From: Kondoa subrosea
Lineage: Eukaryota
Length of the DNA: 64,000 nt
Direction of reading: 5' to 3'
Assembly (NCBI GenBank): GCA_039545335.1
Contig: BCIN01000001.1
Span: 674,208 to 738,207 of the forward strand
This document shows positions 24-62,761 of the stretch, piece after piece. Position 1 is the stretch's first letter, and each line of letters starts with the position of its first letter. The notes beneath the pieces are model-generated. The model worked only from the letters and a program-made list of their open reading frames with translations. It was not told the DNA's origin and made no database searches. The translations under genes were made by a program, and so were the position numbers.

Positions 24-176
24 TGCGTCAAAGGGGATTCGAACCCCTGCCACCGAAGTGACTGCGAACCTCAGACGAGGAAGTTTCATCAACTTGAATG
101 CAGCGCTGATCGAATTTTGAGCTTTTTTCATGCTGAGGAGTGAAGAAAGTACCCTTAACCGCTCGGCCATCGACGC
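24..176 (-). tRNA. tRNA-Leu(CAA) with two introns (47-nt GT-AG intron in the D-stem; 25-nt canonical 37/38 intron)
   Basis: Minus strand: GCGTCGA-TG-GCC-GAGCGGTTAA-GG|intron 152-106|C-G-CTGCA-TT-CAA-G|intron 92-68|T-CGCAG-T-CACTTCGGTG-GC-AGGGG-TTCGAAT-CCCCT-TTGACGC-A. The acceptor stem pairs 7/7 (one G-U), the T-arm is perfect, the variable arm is long (Leu type), the mature length is 81 nt, and a T5 terminator lies at 4-8. There is an A31-C39 mismatch. Confidence 0.9.
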
Positions 177-865: not shown

Positions 866-1887
<1,022 letters not shown>

Positions 1888-2470
1888 GTTCGTCGCGGTG
1901 GAACAAAAGCAAGAAAAAGACGGACTTTACGTGCATGCGATACAAGTCTCTACACTTTCAGTCCTTGATCATCGACTGCCTTTGAAGTGCTGGAGTGTCT
2001 TTCTCTACTATAGTTGTGATACCTTTCATGGACAGGATTGCCCAAACAACGCTTACATCCGCTGCCTCTACCTTCCTCCCTTGTCCTACACTTGAACTAA
2101 ACCTTCTGGCGCGTAGTATGAGCAGTGGGCGAGAATACGAGAGGCAAGAATGAAACAAGAAGGAAGCTGGAAGAGTATCACTGCGGGATTCAACTATCGA
2201 ATGTTACTATTGAGTGTTAAGACTCGCTGACATAGAGGCATGCAAAGATTGCTCCATGACAGAAAAAGGTGTCCGCAATGTCCGTGATGTTCCGCGCAAA
2301 GGCTCCAATAGCAAGTTTCAGCAAGTTTCTAAGAAGAAGAAAAGACAACTAGAACCAAGGGATCAAAGGAAGGCATACTAAGTGTCACAGGAAAAGAATC
2401 AAAGGAAAGCCGAGCGATGGACGTTACTCGCCGTTCCGTGTATTGATAGATCTGAGCTAGCAAAACGAAA

Positions 2471-5980: not shown

Positions 5981-8900
5981 ATGGACTTGTACGATGAGTT
6001 CGGAAACTACCTAGGTGGAGATGATTCAGAAGACTCTGGGGGAGAAGATGCGCATGAGCAGACAAATGGTTATGCTGCCGCTCCAGCTTCGACAGCCGCA
6101 CCTCTAGATGGCTATGATGATCAGGATACGACTATGGGAGATGCTCAAGCGGATCAAGGACCTATTTCAAATGCCGTGATATTGCATGAAGATAAACGAT
6201 ATTACCCTCATGCTTCTGAAGTGTATGGGGATGATGTAGAAGCGCTTGTTCAAGAAGAAGATATGCAACCTCTAACAGAACCTATCATTGCACCTGTCAA
6301 AAAGCTTTCGTTCAGGGTAGTTGAGAACGGCAAGAAGGAAGTTAAGCAGAGATTCGATAACCAATTCTTGCTCGATCTATCCTCGCACCCGGAAAGTGTA
6401 AGGAATGTTGCTGTAGTCGGACATCTGCACCATGGGAAAACAGCTTTGATGGATATGTTGGTCTATGAAACACATCAAATGGATTGGATGCCAGAAAAGC
6501 AGGTGAGGAGAAGTCACGATCATAATCGATTTGTAGTTCTGATGGTTAGATGTGCTTTGCTCACAGCTTCGATACACCGACTCACACATCTTAGCGCAAC
6601 AACGAGGCATTTCACTCAAAGCTTCACCTATGAGTTTCGTACTGCAAAATACAAAAGGCAAATCTTTCCTCCTCAACATGATCGACACACCAGGGCATGT
6701 CAACTTCCAGGTCAGCTATCTCTTTGAGTCGGAGTCGGAAGGTCAAGCTAATGTAGAATGAGCAGGACGAAGTAGCAAGTGCACTTCGATTAGCTGATGG
6801 AGCTGTTCTGGTAGTAGATGCAGTGGAAGGCGTTCGTTGAGCTTGACTCCTTCGGTTTGTGGCTGATTGTGCCTCGATTGATTGAACAGGTACTAGCCAA
6901 TACAGAATACATCATCCGCCATATCCTCGCTCAACACCTGCCGATAACGCTCGTATTGAACAAAGTCGATCGCTTGATCCTTGAACTCCGACTACCTCCC
7001 GGCGATGCATACTATAAGCTGAAACAAACAATAGAAGAAGTGAATACTGTTATAAGCGGAATTGATCCAGATCCAAAGTTACGAGTCTCACCCGAGTTAG
7101 GCAACGTCACTTTCGCCAGTACTTCTATGGGATGGGCTTTCACTTTGAAAAGTTTCGCTAAAATGTATCAAGATACTTACGGTGAGGAAAGCGGATCCGG
7201 GCTATGAGATTTGTTCTCATCCGTTGGGTCACATCTTCTTACAGGTCCCGTTGATCTTGATGGCTTTGCTCTACGATTATGGGGCAACATTTATTTCAAT
7301 CAGACTACCCGGAAATTCAGCAAGCATGAATCTATCGATGGTGATTCGAAACGGGGTTTCCTGCATTTCATCCTGGAGCCTCTATACAAGCTCTATGCAG
7401 CTGTAAGTCGCACTTACCGGTCTTGAGATATATCTGATCACTGATTTCTTTGACATGCAGGTTCTCAGCCAAGACAGTGCAACTCTAAAAAAGACTTTGC
7501 ACTCGCTTGGCATCTTCCTGAAACCAGCAATGTACAAAATGGATGTCCGACCACTTTTGAAACTAGTTCTCAGTCAATTTTTCGGTCCTCCGGCTGGATT
7601 AGTGGATATGATCACTCAACATGTTCCAAATCCAGTAGAAGCAGCTCCTCACAAGATCGCTACTACTTACTTTGGACCTCTTACTTCCAACGTTGCGAAA
7701 GCCATGATTACTTGCGATCCGGAAGGACCACTCATGATTCAAGTGACGAAACTTTTCCCTTCAGAAGATGCGCAGGAATTCCATGCTTTTGGACGAGTCA
7801 TGTCTGGAACTGTCAAATCGGGTCAGAAAGTAAAAGTACTTGGTGAAGGCTTCAGTATGGAAGATGAGGAAGACATGGTCATTGCTACAGTTGAGAAAGT
7901 ATGGATCAACGAGTCAAGGTTCGTGAGACTTATATCCTTCAGCATGCGCTGATGTCGATCATGCATCACGAACAGATATCTTATCGAAACAGATGGTATA
8001 CCAGCAGGCAATTTTGTGACACTTTCAGGTGTAGACAACTCGATTACCAAAAGCGCCACCATTGTGGATGTTTCTATTCAAGAGGACTTGCACATCTTCA
8101 ATCCTATCAAACATATCTCTCAATCCGTTCTCAAGATCGCAGTCGAACCTGTCAACCCATCAGAATTACCTAAAATGCTGGACGGTCTAAGAAAGATTAA
8201 CAAGACCTACCCATTAGTCGAAACTCGAGTAGAAGAAAGTGGCGAGCACGTCATTATTGGTACTGGAGAACTTTACCTTGATTGCGTGATGCATGATCTG
8301 AGAAGAATGTTTGCCGAAATCGAAATCAAAGTTTCGGATCCGGTCGTCAGGTTTTGTGAGACTGTTGTGGAAACGAGTGCATTGAAATGCTACGCTGAAA
8401 CACCGAACAAGAAGTCAGTGCCAGGTGTCTTTCGCTGTTTATATAGCTTATCATCTTCTACTTTGACAGAAACAAGATCACCATGATTGCTGAACCGCTC
8501 GAAAAGGGAATAGCAGACGATATCGAAAAGGGAAGAGTATCGATGAAGATGTCTACCAAGCAAATAGGCAAGCATTTCGAAGAACGCTTCCAATGGGATT
8601 TACTCGCTTCTCGGTCGATATGGGCTTTCGGTCCGGAAGAACAAGGGACAAACATCCTTATGGACGATACTTTACCTTCAGAAGTTGACAAGAAGTTGCT
8701 TGGTTCAGTGAAAGATTTCGTCAAGCAAGGTTTCCAATGGGCGACTCGTGAAGGACCACTTTGCGATGAACGTGAGTCATTCATCTCCGAGTGTATGCTC
8801 AAGTTTTAAGAAAAGTTATCTAGCGATACGAAACGTCAAGTTCCGCATTCTCGATTCCGTCTTAGCACCTGAAGCGATTTTCCGAGGAGGAGGACAAATC

Positions 8901-49406: not shown

Positions 49407-49477
49407 TTTGCTTGTAGGTAGTACAGAACTTGTATGCTAGCTTATTCATAGAACGACCATTGCAAACGAAATTCAGC
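49407..49477 (+). repeat. 71-bp direct repeat, copy 1
   Basis: TTTGCTTGTAGG...GAAATTCAGC, identical to 51299-51369. Confidence 0.95.
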
Positions 49478-51298
49478 TCAAAACCGCTCAAAAGGATTCT
49501 CACACATTGCCAACTCAATTTGGACTTGGCAAGTCTGGTGGTGTTGAACCTATTCTTCGCTACATCGAGCGTGCTATTGAGGATTCACTTACGAGTATCA
49601 AGCACTCAATTATGATCGAACTTGATCTGAAGAACGCCTTTAATCAAATTTGCCGCAAACACATGGCTGAAGCAGTGGCCAAGTATGCACCTGAATTACT
49701 TCCAATGGCGACATGGGCATACAATAATGAATCTGATCTGTTCTTCTGCTTGGAAGATGGGACTGTTGAAATTATCAAGTCACGTCAAGGTGTGCGTCAA
49801 GGTGATACACTTGGCAACCTGCTCTTCTCGATTGCATATCGACCAGTGTTGGAAGATCTTGTTCGAAGGCTCAATGAAGGAGAAACGAATCAGTTCAATC
49901 TTGCTCAAGTTTTGGCTTATCTCGATGATACGAAAGCCTTTGTAGACCGCTCACGTCTTGAGGAAGTCAAAGCTATCTTTGAAGATCACCGTCATCGAGG
50001 CATCATTCTCAACCTCAAACCTCACAAGACTCGTGAAAATGGTCTTTCTCCTCAAGCTGAGATTGAAATACTTGGTAGCTACATTGGACCTTATCCTGAA
50101 CGCTTTCTTCGCGAGAAAGTCATCGGTGAAGCTCTACACCTCTTCAAGCTAGATCAACTTGAAGCCCATCATGCTCTCCTTCTCCTTCGCCTTAGTCTTC
50201 AACACCGCCTGCGTTATCTTCTTCGCACTCTTCCACCTACCCCTGCAGTACTTGAAGTTTGGGCTGAAATGGACACGAACATCTTACGAGCTGTCGCCAA
50301 ATTGCGAGGTGAACAGATACGAATTCAACCGCATGATGCTCGACTCCTCTCCTTTCCGATCAGTTATGGTGGACTTGGCTTCTTGTCTCTTAAGGAAGGT
50401 GCTGAACATGGAAGAGCAGCAATGATTGAGAAGATGGATTACTTGATCAATGACTTTGCTCCAGATGTCAATTATTCAGAACCATCAGAATTCAAGAGTC
50501 AAAGAGAGCGATGTCATGAAATGCACAAAGAGAATCGGACCAAGCTCTTACCTCAACTCAGCTCATCTGAGCTCGTTCAATATGTCGACAACCACTCCTC
50601 AATCTCTTCACAGTGTCTTCATGCCATCCCAAACAACTCTTACAAAACGCTGTCGAAGAGAGAAATTGCAGTTGGTTTGACACACCGAACGCTCATACGA
50701 GGTCACAACGACGTCTGCAAGTACTGCTGCCGTCCAAATNTCATTGGACATGATGAAGTCTGTGCTCAACGNCAGAATATGCGAATCTTCCGCCANGAGA
50801 AGGCAAAGATTACGATCAAGTACCACGTCGAAACGATAGAGGGCACAACAGTCAAACCTGAACCTTCTATTCCTGGTCGAAGAGATCGAACTGATCTNCG
50901 CATTCGCATAGCTGGACCTGGCTCGTTCCGTCAAGAAGTTGGGGACTACGATATCAAGTTCACTTCTGTTCATTCGCAACGCTTTCCTCCTGCTCCAACC
51001 ACTCAAGATCCTGACCTCTTTGCTTCAACTGAAAAACGAATTTCACATTACCTGTCTGGAATTGAAGCGGAGAAGAATCGTCACTACTGCAGTCTCGTCA
51101 AGAATCCTTTCCACCCTATCATATTCACCTCATCTGGAACTCCTTCACCTAACTCAAAAGATGTCCTTGCTCATTGGCAAGATCTCATGGATCCGTATGT
51201 ATACAAGTCATTAATTCTCGATCTCTCTATCAATTTGTTACGCGCTCGGTCTCGTTGTTTTGTTCTCTGAAGTAAAAAGGGAAAGCTGAAGTAGACAA
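49478..51298 (+). mobile_element. 5'-truncated non-LTR retrotransposon, CRE clade (Cnl1/MoTeR/SLACS-like): RT + CCHC + restriction-like endonuclease
   Basis: Intronless ORF to 51270 with QFGLG, LDLKNAFN, GVRQGDTLG, AYLDD, ILGSYIG, GGLG, Cx2Cx7Hx3C, RH/xE, RTD...DIK...EAEKNRHY and FHPIIFTSSG. It begins inside the RT domain with no ATG. Four N calls lie within it. Confidence 0.9.
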
Positions 51299-51369
51299 TT
51301 TGCTTGTAGGTAGTACAGAACTTGTATGCTAGCTTATTCATAGAACGACCATTGCAAACGAAATTCAGC
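51299..51369 (+). repeat. 71-bp direct repeat, copy 2
   Basis: Identical to 49407-49477. Confidence 0.95.
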
Positions 51370-51479
51370 ACGCGCCCTCTAGGAGGACTCGCACAGTAGA
51401 GTGCTATTGTGAGAAAATGCCTTACAAAGTTTTGTTGGTATTTCAATAACATAAATGAGCCTACAAAGCTTACGTAATC

Positions 51480-51616
51480 ACTGTAATAGTCTAGTAGTTG
51501 TATGCAAAACCTTCTCGCTTCTTCGAATTCTGCTTATATCTGTGTCAATTTAGAGGATATGCCTTTCCCATTTGCGTGGCCTGGGCATGACCTGGGTTCA
51601 AGTCCCAGTTACAGTA
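51480..51616 (+). tRNA. tRNA-Gly(CCC)-like gene with two introns (54-nt GT-AG intron in the D-loop; 11-nt 37/38 intron); atypical, possibly degenerate
   Basis: ACTGTAA-TA-GTCT-AGTAGTT|51500-51553|A-GGAT-A-TGCCT-TT-CCC-A|51571-51581|T-GGGCA-TGAC-CTGGG-TTCAAGT-CCCAG-TTACAGT-A. Acceptor 7/7, perfect T-arm, 72-nt mature length, TTTT at 51624. It lacks the D-loop GG and has A1-U72. Confidence 0.75.
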
Positions 51617-51789
51617 TCTCTACTTTTGCTCGAGAGTTAAACGTCGAAGCCTTGCTATTTTTTTGATCAAAGTAATGTGGTATTCTTTCTCAGTACGGAT
51701 AATACTGCCCAGGACTGTGCATCTCGTTCCCCCCATACGCAGGGGGAACAGGTTGGAATACAGGCAAACTGCTCGAAATCAGCCAATAC

Positions 51790-52640
51790 AAAATAAAAGG
51801 AATGCAGCTCACCTTTGAACTCTATGATGCCTGTTGTAATACTTTGCCGAGAGTACGACATAAGTCAACCCAGTCATGATGACAGTCGCTCCCAATCTGA
51901 TGAATAGATCAGCTCGAAGCAGAGTAAAATCACAGAAACAATACTGACGCGATACTAGGAACTCGAGTGCCTTGAGGACCCCATTCGATAGTCAGATTAC
52001 TTGCGCCGCTGACAACGAAAAGGATGCCTCGATCAAACATAGCTGTTCTTGTTGCCCAGACACATTTCAGGCAAATGAAGCGAGTAAATTCAGGCGCTTG
52101 AACCACGAGTGAGCTGAAGTTTCGAGGAAGGAGACAAAAAAGGTGACTTACCAGCTATGAATAAGCCTACAATAATGAATATGGTACCGATGATAGCTTG
52201 TAAAGCATCAGGCTTAGTTGTAGTAGCTGGATCCTTGAAAACGAAAGCAGATGCGAATCGAGCTACATTGCAGAATCAGCTGTCGACCCTCCAAAAGGAG
52301 ATTAGACTGACCAGCTCCGAGGATAACAAAGATGACGGCCATCAGCAGATCGACCCATCTTCCTTTCTCGACCGCAGATTCACCAACCTCAGTGATTACG
52401 GAAGGACTGGGCCTGGGTCGAGCGCTTCTCGGAGTAGGCGGCAAGTAATCACGATAGGACTTATTGTCGGTGACGGAAGATGCAGAGTAGAAGGAACGGT
52501 CATCGTATAGTGGAAGAGATCGTTCGGAACGCAACCTCCGTCCAGCATGAGCTTTCTCTGGTCTATCATGTCTTGTGCCAGTGGAAGCAGAGTACAAAGT
52601 ATAGCGTTCAGGATTGTCTGGAGAACGCATTGATTGAGAA
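51790..52640 (-). CDS. Hypothetical small membrane protein; boundaries uncertain
   Basis: ORF 52214-52717 has a hydrophobic WVDLLMAVIFVILGAG segment, followed by splice-like signals and further hydrophobic exons. Confidence 0.35.
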
Positions 52641-60115: not shown

Positions 60116-62618
60116 TCACTGTACAGTGTCATCTACTTGCATGTCCGCTCCTACTTTGGCAGCTTCCATGACTTCTGTCCTCCGAACCAATTCGCTATCT
60201 ACCGGAAGACTCTCGCTTGGCTTGACTGCCTCGCCGTCATCCACTGTATCGACCTTTTCCGTTTGAGTTGCGTTAGTAGAGTCTTTCTTCTTGCCTTGAT
60301 ATGATATAGCTTTACGTTGCGGACCCCAGTTCTCTTGTGGATTCTCTTGGAAACGAACGATCTTGACATCTTTGAGCATAGCAGCATCCGATTTTGGATG
60401 ATTAGAGAAATCAGCTGTCAACCTGTTTGTGAAACGTGCTGTACGATCAACTTTCACACTGATTGTGCAAGCAAGCCCACAAACGTTGCTTCTTTGGCCA
60501 GCATCACACGAGCAGGTGAACCTTCCTTCACATTAGCCATTTTCACTGGTCTACCGTCTGCGATGTAACTGCGTATGATATCGTGCAAAACTGATCGAGG
60601 CGCATCAGTCTTGATACCTCCTGCTAGAGCATGAGTCGCTGAAGCTGAATAGCCGGCATTGAGAATAGCGTTACTGTTCGTTGCCGCTGTGTTTAGTCCT
60701 CGGCAAAAGAGAGCCGAAAAGAAGGACTAACACCATGACTTTTTGCGATGGTGCTTGAGAATGCAGGTTGCCCGCTACTTTCGATTGCGTGAAGTAGAAA
60801 GGAGCAGTCAATTCCTATGTGCCAAGACATTCGGGCATGAGCTCTTTTATCAAGCAACATGTGATTGATTGAACACACCGCTTGAGCAATAGCGCACATG
60901 CCTAATATCCTCGTTTGAGTCTTGTACATCGCATCACCACTTTTGACATGTTCAATCATTTTGCCAACGAAATCTCGATCATGCAAGGGACCACTGTAGA
61001 GCGGTCCTCCAAGATGAAAACTACTGCCACACTCTTCACATTTCTTATCCGCTGGCGGTCCAGAATTGGTATGGTAATTCAAGATGACTTGATCTTTCTT
61101 GGATGTCTTTTCGCTCATTCGACCGATCGGTTGCAAATGCGTATTTTGGCAGTAATGACAGATATAGACTGTTGAGGTATTTCTGAGAGTATTCTAATCA
61201 GTACGCAACATGACGTTGTAAAAGCAAAGGGGAACAAACGTCATGGCTTTTTTCACTTCAACCGGCGCTGTGTACACTCTGATGAACAGGCGAACATAGA
61301 AATCGATTGACAAGCAAAGTTGAGGTTTCTTCAGATCATTTCAGCTTGTACAGATCATATCTGATAAGGCTGCTTACGATGTGTCGGCCATAGCGAGCGG
61401 CTGAAGTCTGAATGGCATGCAGTACAAGCCGAAGAGCCTGTCAAAAGATTGTCAGCTAGAACTTCAAAGCAACAGCGACAGACATACTCCCTCATGCATG
61501 AATTCTGCCTTAAGAGGCGTCCCACCGTAATTCGAAAAGCTGTGCAATGGGATTGTTTGCAAAGCTTATAAAAGCATCGAAACAGCCCACGCACCATTTC
61601 TCTGGATAATTTGAGCCGGCCAGCACAGCCAAATCCGTACAAGTCACGCAAAGCAGTCCTGCACCGTCGATGAGCTGTGATAGCATTAATGAAATCATTC
61701 ACTAACCACCATCGTTGATACTCTGCACAGCAGCATCTATAAAAGGTGCAGCGGTTCCATAAGGATCCAAATCGACCACATCGAATCTCAAAGCATCCGT
61801 TCGATGATTGTACATGACTGTTGAACAATCTCCTTCGTTGACTCTGATTTTGGATGGTATTGTACCAGCAGGGAGTGGTTTAGATTCGGCTGATCCATCT
61901 GTCAGATCGTTCAAGGCTATATTCTCTTTCATGCTTGTTATTGCTGAGCGAGACAAATCGTTTGCAAGCACCCATCTGTAGGTGGAACGAAACCTTGAGC
62001 TCAAACATGGCACCATTTAATTATATACCTACCGTAGAAGTGGCAGCTCCAATGCGTACCGAATAGATCGCAGACCTGATGCAGCGAGAGCTTCGAAGCA
62101 TGTAAATTTGTAAGGATCCGGTCTTCTTGGTTGCGATGGCGCTTCCTCGACAGTCTGTGAGTCAGTGAGCATTAAATACACTAATGAAGTGAATCAAAGG
62201 ATCAGCTTACCTCAACTGCGGCATCTTCCGGTTGCTGCATCACTCCAACAGCTTGACCATCTTCACCCTTCCTTCGCTTGCCGCTTCTGCCAGTACCGTT
62301 CAGACCTTTTGCAGCCCTTCTCGCCTGTTTCTTTTCCCATGCATCTGCTTTCTCTTTGGCAAATATTTCAGACCAAGTCCTAATAGCGACAATTGATAGA
62401 TCTCTGTTGAATTCTTGCACAGGATTCAAGAAGACATTCTTAGGTCCAGTACTACTAGTACTTGTACTTCCAGCATCAGCAGCAGCATCAACAGGAGGAG
62501 CTTTGTTTGAGGTAGATGCAACTGGAACATAGATTTTTGCTGCTCCTTCGCTGTGAATGGCCATTTCGGTAGACATGCTTCTAAGTATTATACGCCTTAT
62601 GCTAGGCTTCAAGAGCAT
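60116..62618 (-). CDS. TRM1: tRNA (guanine26-N2)-dimethyltransferase
   Basis: VFLNPVQEFNRDLSI, FEALAASGLRSIRYALE, FDVVDLDPYGTAAPFIDAAVQ, FQENPQENWGP. Confidence 0.95.
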
Positions 62619-62761
62619 GCACTGCTAGCAGGATTATCTCGATCAAGGTATAATCCGACGTTTGATTCCAAGCAATAATAGTAGCAATGCCAGCTTGACC
62701 TGTCACGTCCAGCCCGATACACAGATTCGTTGTTTCTTCTGTTCTAGGGTAGTCTACAACA

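Follow-up and report, generated by a model that had tools for sequence, protein, structure and literature searches.

A GT...AG insert in the D-loop of a tRNA-Gly(CCC) gene from a basidiomycete-like fungus, compared with spliceosomal and ectopic introns of other noncoding RNA genes

Introns of the messenger RNA (mRNA) type are known outside mRNA genes. The available text of PMC5855946 places spliceosomal introns in the genes for U6 small nuclear RNA (snRNA), an RNA polymerase III (Pol III) product, in those for U1, U2, and U5 snRNA, and in ribosomal RNA (rRNA) genes, citing Tani & Ohshima 1989 and 1991, Takahashi 1993 and 1996, Canzler 2016, and Bhattacharya 2000. In the same text the hosts of the U6 introns are Schizosaccharomyces pombe and basidiomycetous yeasts, and the origin proposed for snRNA and rRNA introns is reverse splicing followed by reverse transcription. 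The introns of transfer RNA (tRNA) genes, which are cut by an endonuclease, are kept apart from the spliceosomal GT...AG introns of RNA polymerase II transcripts in the available parts of two reviews (PMC10275265, PMC13149111), and we found no report of a spliceosomal-type or GT...AG intron in a tRNA gene in the open-access and bioRxiv literature. Here we describe a tRNA-Gly(CCC) gene at 51480-51616 on the plus strand of a 64,000-nucleotide (nt) stretch of contig BCIN01000001.1, hereafter the window, in which a 54-nt insert with GT...AG ends interrupts the D-loop. Our tentative reading is that this locus carries a spliceosomal-type intron within a working Pol III tRNA gene.

The likeness to the U6 introns, as the available accounts present them, lies in the combination of a short GT...AG intron, a small structured noncoding RNA gene with a Pol III internal promoter, and a fungal host, basidiomycetes included. 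Unlike the snRNA introns, the insert described here resides in a tRNA, which is not a component of the spliceosome, and the argument from "proximity to the active site" is inapplicable to it. The Gly case also differs from the U6 introns in that its splicing is a prediction and its splice signals are weak.

A second set of comparisons comes from tRNA introns outside the canonical 37/38 position. In the accessible portion of the PlantRNA 2.0 preprint (10.1101/2021.12.21.473619), nuclear tRNA genes of the red alga Chondrus crispus have D-loop introns at 20/21 and T-loop introns at 58/59; genes of the 20/21 kind had been called pseudogenes by tRNAscan-SE, and some also have the canonical intron. 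So far as those accounts go, the Gly gene resembles the red-algal genes in being a nuclear tRNA gene interrupted at D-loop position 20/21, in the additional 37/38 intron that some of them share, and in being of a kind that standard finders miss or call a pseudogene. The introns of Cyanidioschyzon merolae (Soma 2007/2013), as summarized in the sources available, form a bulge-helix-bulge for the endonuclease, which the Gly insert lacks, and the lineage differs; GT...AG ends or branch motifs are not mentioned in the available parts of the red-algal accounts. The nucleomorph tRNA introns of Guillardia theta (Kawach 2005; available text of PMC4090602 and PMC3978253) lie in the D and T arms, are 3-24 nt long, and number at most three per gene. 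They too are eukaryotic D-arm inserts, and many of them are excised in vivo without a clear bulge-helix-bulge. In contrast to the Gly insert, they are far below spliceosomal length and belong to a reduced endosymbiont nucleus, and those texts mention no GT...AG rule. Archaeal tRNA genes (Marck & Grosjean 2003; Sugahara 2007-2009) likewise hold multiple introns per gene, with the D arm included (20/21, 22/23, and 25/26, among other sites); what defines them is the bulge-helix-bulge together with the archaeal endonuclease, and neither holds for the Gly insert.

Aligned to the Rfam tRNA model RF00005, the Gly gene scores 36.0 bits (gathering score 29) and spans the full model, positions 1-71, with 57 bases left unaligned in the D-loop and 14 in the anticodon loop. 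After scripted removal of the 54 nt, ARAGORN returns tRNA-Gly(ccc) with an 11-nt canonical intron and a mature length of 72 nt. The initial annotation had read 51500-51553 as a 54-nt segment running from GTATGC through TGCTTAT to TTTAG and had obtained a 72-nt cloverleaf once both inserts were taken out, and the present analysis agrees on each count. Removal of exactly these bases restores an 8-nt D-loop of the usual form, and the flanking bases permit no sliding of the boundaries. Pairing is kept at 21 of 21 stem positions; the anticodon loop has its normal form, and T-loop, U33, and canonical intron show no defect. The 54-nt insert sits at 20a/21 and not at 37/38, where the 11-nt insert does lie; its TGCTTAT motif places CTTAT 17 nt from the 3' end, and it has no run of four T residues (T4). 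In the centroid fold of the precursor, the acceptor, anticodon, and T arms are formed, the D region is open, and the insert is unstructured.

Standard searches overlook this gene. ARAGORN run on the raw window returned no tRNAs, and an Rfam scan of the window with default filters missed the Gly gene and reported only a candidate at 24-176 on the minus strand. By two independent scans, one with Rfam at E<=1 and the other for an acceptor, T-arm, and A-box arrangement in genes of up to about 420 nt, the window holds exactly these two tRNA candidates. The copy number of the Gly gene was assessed by placing on positions 51200-51900 contigs from the only two public runs in which this DNA occurs, both of them DNA runs from a single sample that is probably where the window came from. 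Left of about 51417 the depth is 500-2000, as for repeated DNA, whereas over the tRNA region it is that of unique DNA (144.7 and 54.9), with no joints and no loose ends. The gene is therefore single copy, lies outside the repeat, and has no intron-less twin in the DNA; at 80% likeness or more, neither an intron-less copy nor a paralogue was present in the two runs. With a single copy and no intron-less form, the locus is not the head of a short interspersed nuclear element (SINE). Taken on its sequence features, it is best described as a predicted single-copy nuclear tRNA-Gly(CCC) gene.

The scheme that we propose for its expression is as follows. Pol III would transcribe the gene from its internal A and B boxes, giving a precursor that would hold two inserts of different kinds and would fold into acceptor, anticodon, and T arms with the D-loop intron as an open loop. 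The 11-nt insert at 37/38 would be a tRNA intron of the ordinary kind, for which the tRNA splicing endonuclease makes the cuts and tRNA ligase joins the exons. The 54-nt insert would most probably be a GT...AG intron of the mRNA type, removed by the spliceosome as is the U6 snRNA intron of fission yeast. It is thus the transcription of the gene, its splicing, and the splicing machine that we infer here.

The second candidate in the window is a class II, Leu-CAA-like gene, which also has an insert at the canonical position. Its D-arm insert has a junction that is fixed by the D-stem, so that only two equivalent descriptions exist, one of which is GT...AG. Both window candidates (2/2) are therefore interrupted in the D arm by a GT...AG insert just 3' of the A box. 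This pairing had been pointed out in the initial annotation together with the different insertion sites, before A21 in the Gly gene and at 24/25 in the Leu gene, and both statements hold on the coordinates obtained here. As that annotation had also remarked, a position just 3' of the A box means that only the spacing between the A and B boxes grows, and this applies to all the inserts considered below. The anticodon of the Leu-like gene may be CAA or UCA, and its function is putative.

Independent cases were sought in metagenomes with a pattern consisting of the conserved class II 5' exon (D arm) followed by GT, the only requirement placed on the insert. At least 118 loci carry this pattern, and among the 118 listed there are three (L008, L053, and L071) whose sequence, less an insert at 24/25, yields a complete class II tRNA. 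Position 24/25 is also the site of the insert in the Leu-like gene of the window. In each of the three, a CAG end directly precedes the D-stem base, and neither the CAG nor the branch motif was imposed by the pattern (Table 1). Scored on a matrix of mRNA introns from the window, which is foreign to their hosts, the inserts of L053, L071, and L008 fall in the top 0.9%, 1.2%, and 6.8% of random GT...AG segments, respectively. For L071 the host is indicated by an adjoining gene for aspartate aminotransferase, which among named sequences is closest to those of Pezizomycotina (59-63% identity); the contig of L008 is AT-rich, and that of L053 is GC-rich and marine. Rfam, run on 10 of the loci, recovered L071 alone (30.3 bits), as the long inserts defeat the model. 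As controls, prokaryote genomes searched with the GTAWG form of the pattern gave two matches, both in coding sequence, and a search of viral contigs gave three matches, all coding. For L008, L053, and L071, assignment as candidate nuclear tRNA genes with a GT...AG spliceosome-type D-arm intron is well supported by these sequence features; for the Leu-like gene of the window the same assignment is reasonably supported. For the Gly insert it is partly supported: its ends, size, and placement fit, as do the lack of a bulge-helix-bulge and the lack of T runs, whereas its internal signals do not.

The other 115 of the 118 loci listed were rejected as coding sequence, tRNA-derived repeats, or ordinary tRNA-like DNA, and an ARAGORN call at L112 was spurious. 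Three loci (L021, L026, and L082) have the class II 5' exon followed by GTGCGT, a CTGAC motif, AAAACAG, and CG, and so look intron-like after the D arm; a 3' tRNA half was not found in them, they do not close into a tRNA, and the downstream part has a T6 run. Seven further loci (L020, L025, L030, L047, L057, L058, and L084) form a near-identical tRNA-Ser-like family, several members of which come from coral-associated metagenome contigs. This family matched the pattern without any insert and probably consists of tRNA-derived repeats.

The five genes share a feature expected of Pol III transcription units. Runs of four or more T are absent from all five (855 nt), and such a run lies 4-29 nt downstream of each (5/5). 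Within the five D-arm inserts (353 nt) there are nine runs of four or more A and no run of four or more T, while 13 mRNA introns of the window (714 nt) have one and three, respectively. The Gly gene on its own has no such T run in its 137 nt and then a T4 at +8. That Pol III terminators are avoided on this strand specifically is an argument for transcription of the inserts by Pol III within the pre-tRNA. As a broader proposition, it seems to us an even call whether spliceosomal introns have colonized Pol III tRNA genes in several distant eukaryotes, always 3' of the A box and without Pol III terminators. The hosts, on that proposition and with the same balance of belief, would be the basidiomycete-like fungus of the window, a fungus from soil that lies nearest to Pezizomycotina, and two further eukaryotes, one AT-rich and the other marine and GC-rich.

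The interior of the Gly insert was compared with 13 mRNA introns of the window, which were mapped by tblastn with homologues (two in AIP3, four in XPB, and seven in Snu114). These local introns are 50-64 nt long and mostly end in CAG; at the 5' splice site they are loose, with GTRAGY joined by GTCAGC, GTTCGT, and GTATTA. A CTRA branch motif is present in 11 of the 13. On visual inspection the remaining two show CTTAT and CTCAA, although in some introns the matrix described next chose other motifs. This position matrix, derived from the 13, gave leave-one-out scores with a median of 8.2 (range -3.2 to 12.2). A comparison with mRNA introns, by sequence logos of the insert ends, had been proposed in the initial annotation, and the outcome here is divided: at 54 nt the insert is inside the local size range, with the 47-nt Leu insert just below it, but its score of 1.5 exceeds that of only one of the 13 real introns and is below that of the other 12. 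As many as 25.5% of 10,408 random GT...AG segments reach this score, which is made up of 0.0 for the 5' site (GTATGC), 2.6 for the branch, and -1.1 for the 3' site. No CTRAY branch site, nor any CTRA, is present in the insert, the best candidate being GCTTATA at 17 nt (2.6 bits). The description of a near-consensus donor and a branch-like motif in the initial annotation was thus too generous. The ends and length of the Gly insert are intron-like, but it has no convincing internal splice signals. The Leu insert scores 4.0, a value reached by 11.5% of the random segments, and beats two of the 13 real introns.

The two local introns without CTRAY are both in Snu114 on the plus strand, at 8414-8469 (CTTAT) and 8772-8823 (CTCAA), and the same two pentamers are the leading branch candidates of the Gly and Leu inserts. 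CTTAT lies 19 nt from the end of the intron at 8414-8469, which makes it the single possible local precedent for the CTTAT of the Gly insert, with the caveat that the matrix chose another motif in that intron.

The weight to be given to the GT...AG ends of the Gly insert hinges on the boundary rule, and they are significant only if an exact 8-nt D-loop must be restored. Under that strict rule, 481 of 127,564 54-mers of the window have GT...AG ends (0.38%). Under a relaxed rule that accepts D-loops of 7-11 nt, a GT...AG deletion of some kind can be made in 9,583 of 20,000 random inserts (48%), and at the Gly locus itself ARAGORN accepts GT...AG deletions of 56, 57, and 59 nt as well.

The low matrix score, the missing branch site, and the outcome of the relaxed boundary rule all count against a spliceosomal intron in a working gene, and several properties of the tRNA genes have to be set beside them. 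The near-invariant residues of tRNA are U8, A14, G18, G19, U33, T54-Psi55-C56, and A58. All are kept in the Gly gene but one, position 18 being A rather than G, and this A18 is also a mismatch in the A box, which it weakens. The acceptor stem is AT-rich and opens with A1-U72, both unusual for a cytosolic tRNA-Gly. An orthologue is lacking as well as a paralogue: an exact scan of metagenome contigs with the 3' half of the gene gave no matches. The three metagenome cases are class II tRNAs interrupted at 24/25, another site and another tRNA than in the Gly gene. For the second window candidate, the Leu-CAA reading requires an A31-C39 mismatch, and when its 47 nt are removed ARAGORN shifts the register and returns 'SeC(tca)' with a 27-nt intron.

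Much of this would be accommodated if the Gly locus were a decaying tRNA gene, a pseudogene with a unique 54-nt insertion whose GT...AG ends are coincidental and whose RNA, if made, is never repaired. Both the ease with which random inserts permit a GT...AG deletion when the boundaries are free and an intron-matrix score that is indistinguishable from that of random GT...AG segments speak for decay, as do A18 and the unusual acceptor stem. GGG codons are readable by tRNA-Gly(UCC), and the loss of Gly(CCC) would thus be tolerable. Insertions in the D or T arm of eukaryotic tRNA genes are, moreover, usually read as pseudogenes according to the available text of Yoshihisa 2014 (PMC4090602). We nevertheless consider decay rather doubtful. 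The stems, T-loop, U33, and canonical intron of the gene have all been preserved, the insert is not a repeat, and the absence of T4 over the length of the gene is followed closely by a terminator-like run. Coincidence would also have to extend to the second tRNA candidate of the window, where the junction is fixed and only two of 256 end combinations fit, and decay leaves unexplained the strongly intron-like inserts that three unrelated organisms carry in otherwise perfect class II tRNA genes.

Alternatively, the insert could be a real ectopic tRNA intron that is removed without the spliceosome, by the tRNA splicing endonuclease and ligase or by another activity, with the GT and AG being incidental. 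Position 20/21 is the site of the Chondrus crispus introns that were validated by reverse transcription PCR (RT-PCR), on the evidence of the accessible preprint text (10.1101/2021.12.21.473619), and this validation gives more weight to such removal. Junctions or introns at 20/21 are likewise recorded for Cyanidioschyzon merolae and archaea in the available parts of PMC3978253 and PMC4090602, where many ectopic nucleomorph introns are spliced without a defined bulge-helix-bulge; the weak spliceosomal signals of the Gly insert point the same way. For the endonuclease, the structure sought was two 3-nt bulges separated by 4 bp. It is absent at the Gly junctions, where two of four central pairs form and the flanking helices are 0 and 1 bp, and an exhaustive scan of cut sites near the junction yielded only wrong products or 1-bp helices. 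No bulge-helix-bulge was present at the insert junctions of any of the five genes (Gly, Leu-like, L008, L053, and L071). In fungi the endonuclease locates 37/38 by measuring from the mature domain (in part from the available text of PMC4090602), and the insert lies elsewhere. In an internal control within the same five genes, GT...AG ends occur in 5/5 D-arm inserts (GT having been imposed in three) versus 0/4 canonical-position inserts, and the three metagenome cases have full branch sites. We accordingly regard removal by a nonspliceosomal route as decidedly unlikely. An Ire1/HAC1-type loop motif at the Gly insert was also considered by eye and set aside, the bases at the cuts being a misfit to that motif.

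It is highly improbable that the locus is a tRNA-like module of the neighboring retroelement (for example, a tRNA-like structure at its 3' end or a head of the SINE type): a reverse-transcriptase open reading frame (ORF) and repeated DNA do lie directly upstream on the same strand, at 62-210 nt, but the repeat has its edge at about 51417 by depth and by contig ends, the tRNA region beyond it has unique depth and no loose ends, the cloverleaf is complete, and the Leu-like gene has the same kind of insert with no retroelement ORF among the ORFs scanned beside it.

If spliceosomal introns do occupy tRNA genes in the several eukaryotes named above, tRNA maturation in those organisms would require the spliceosome. 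A tRNA gene that depends on the spliceosome would join two splicing pathways and carry the U6 precedent over to the Pol III products of greatest abundance, and it would serve as a natural test case for spliceosomal recognition of introns in transcripts made by Pol III. Hidden tRNA genes of this kind would escape annotation by tRNAscan-SE, ARAGORN, and default Rfam, and this would account for tRNA genes that seem "missing" or "pseudo" in those fungi and protists that have been little sampled; tRNA finders would need to tolerate D-arm inserts in eukaryotic genes. One way in which introns may be gained is that they reverse-splice into abundant RNAs, which are then reverse-transcribed; the reverse-transcriptase element adjacent to the Gly gene is an association only.

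Table 1. Positions of the Gly gene, the Leu-like gene, and the upstream element in the window, and of the three metagenome cases in their own loci
Feature	Position	Strand	Description
tRNA-Gly(CCC) exon 1	51480-51499	+	20 nt; acceptor 5' strand, U8, D-stem 5' strand, D-loop to position 20a
A-box region	51487-51498	+	within Gly exon 1
D-loop insert	51500-51553	+	54 nt between 20a and 21; 5' end GTATGC, 3' end TTTAG
Gly exon 2	51554-51570	+	17 nt; A21, D-stem 3' strand, anticodon-stem 5' strand, loop to A37
Anticodon CCC	51567-51569	+	in Gly exon 2
Canonical 37/38 intron	51571-51581	+	11 nt, ends not GT...AG; i(38,11) in ARAGORN, 14-nt insertion in Rfam
Gly exon 3	51582-51616	+	35 nt; position 38, anticodon-stem 3' strand, 4-nt variable loop, T arm, acceptor 3' strand; ends with discriminator A
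B box	51595-51605	+	in T arm of Gly exon 3
Pol III terminator-like T runs	51624-51627 and 51658-51664	+	T4 at +8 and T7 at +42, from sequence
ATAAAT, TATA-like element	51451-51456	+	-29 to -24 of the tRNA 5' end; putative role
Leu-CAA-like tRNA candidate	24-176	-	class II; Rfam 31.8 bits
Leu-like D-arm insert	152-106	-	47 nt between positions 24 and 25; starts GTAC, ends CAG
Retroelement fragment	49407-51417	+	multi-copy; right edge about 62 nt upstream of Gly tRNA
Reverse-transcriptase ORF	49441-51270	+	Pfam RVT_1; weak best solved-structure relatives among reverse transcriptases are R2 retrotransposon proteins
Perfect 71-nt direct repeats	49407-49477 and 51299-51369		flank the reverse-transcriptase ORF
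L008, Leu(AAG)	match 2001-2020	- (of locus)	D-arm insert 71 nt, GTATGT/CTAAC/CAG; no canonical intron
L053, Leu(AAG)	match 2001-2020		D-arm insert 129 nt, GTAAGA/CTGAC/CAG; canonical intron 42 nt
L071, Ser(AGA)	1456-1618		D-arm insert 52 nt, GTAAGC/CTAAC/CAG; canonical intron 30 nt

The protein-coding content of the window identifies its source, by sequence similarity, as a basidiomycete-like fungus. The AIP3/Bud6 ORF has at most about 41% identity to named proteins of Agaricomycetes and Dacrymycetes, and a piece of Snu114 has up to 70% identity to Tremellales proteins.

The element upstream of the Gly gene may be a retroelement without long terminal repeats that targets Pol III genes; retroelements that end near active Pol III genes are seen in other organisms, and in this respect the neighborhood favors a working Gly gene. 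In its reverse-transcriptase ORF (49441-50739 on the plus strand), a stretch of about 40-50 residues within residues about 136-209 matches designer pentatricopeptide-repeat proteins in the PDB. This match, with E values down to 3e-11, is better than that of the reverse-transcriptase part to R2 proteins (3e-4). Single N bases occur in the ORF at 50740, 50772, 50796, and 50898. Elsewhere in the window, at 60116-62624 on the minus strand, lies an ordinary multi-exon gene for TRM1, the tRNA N2,N2-dimethylguanosine-26 methyltransferase, whose product acts next to the D arm.

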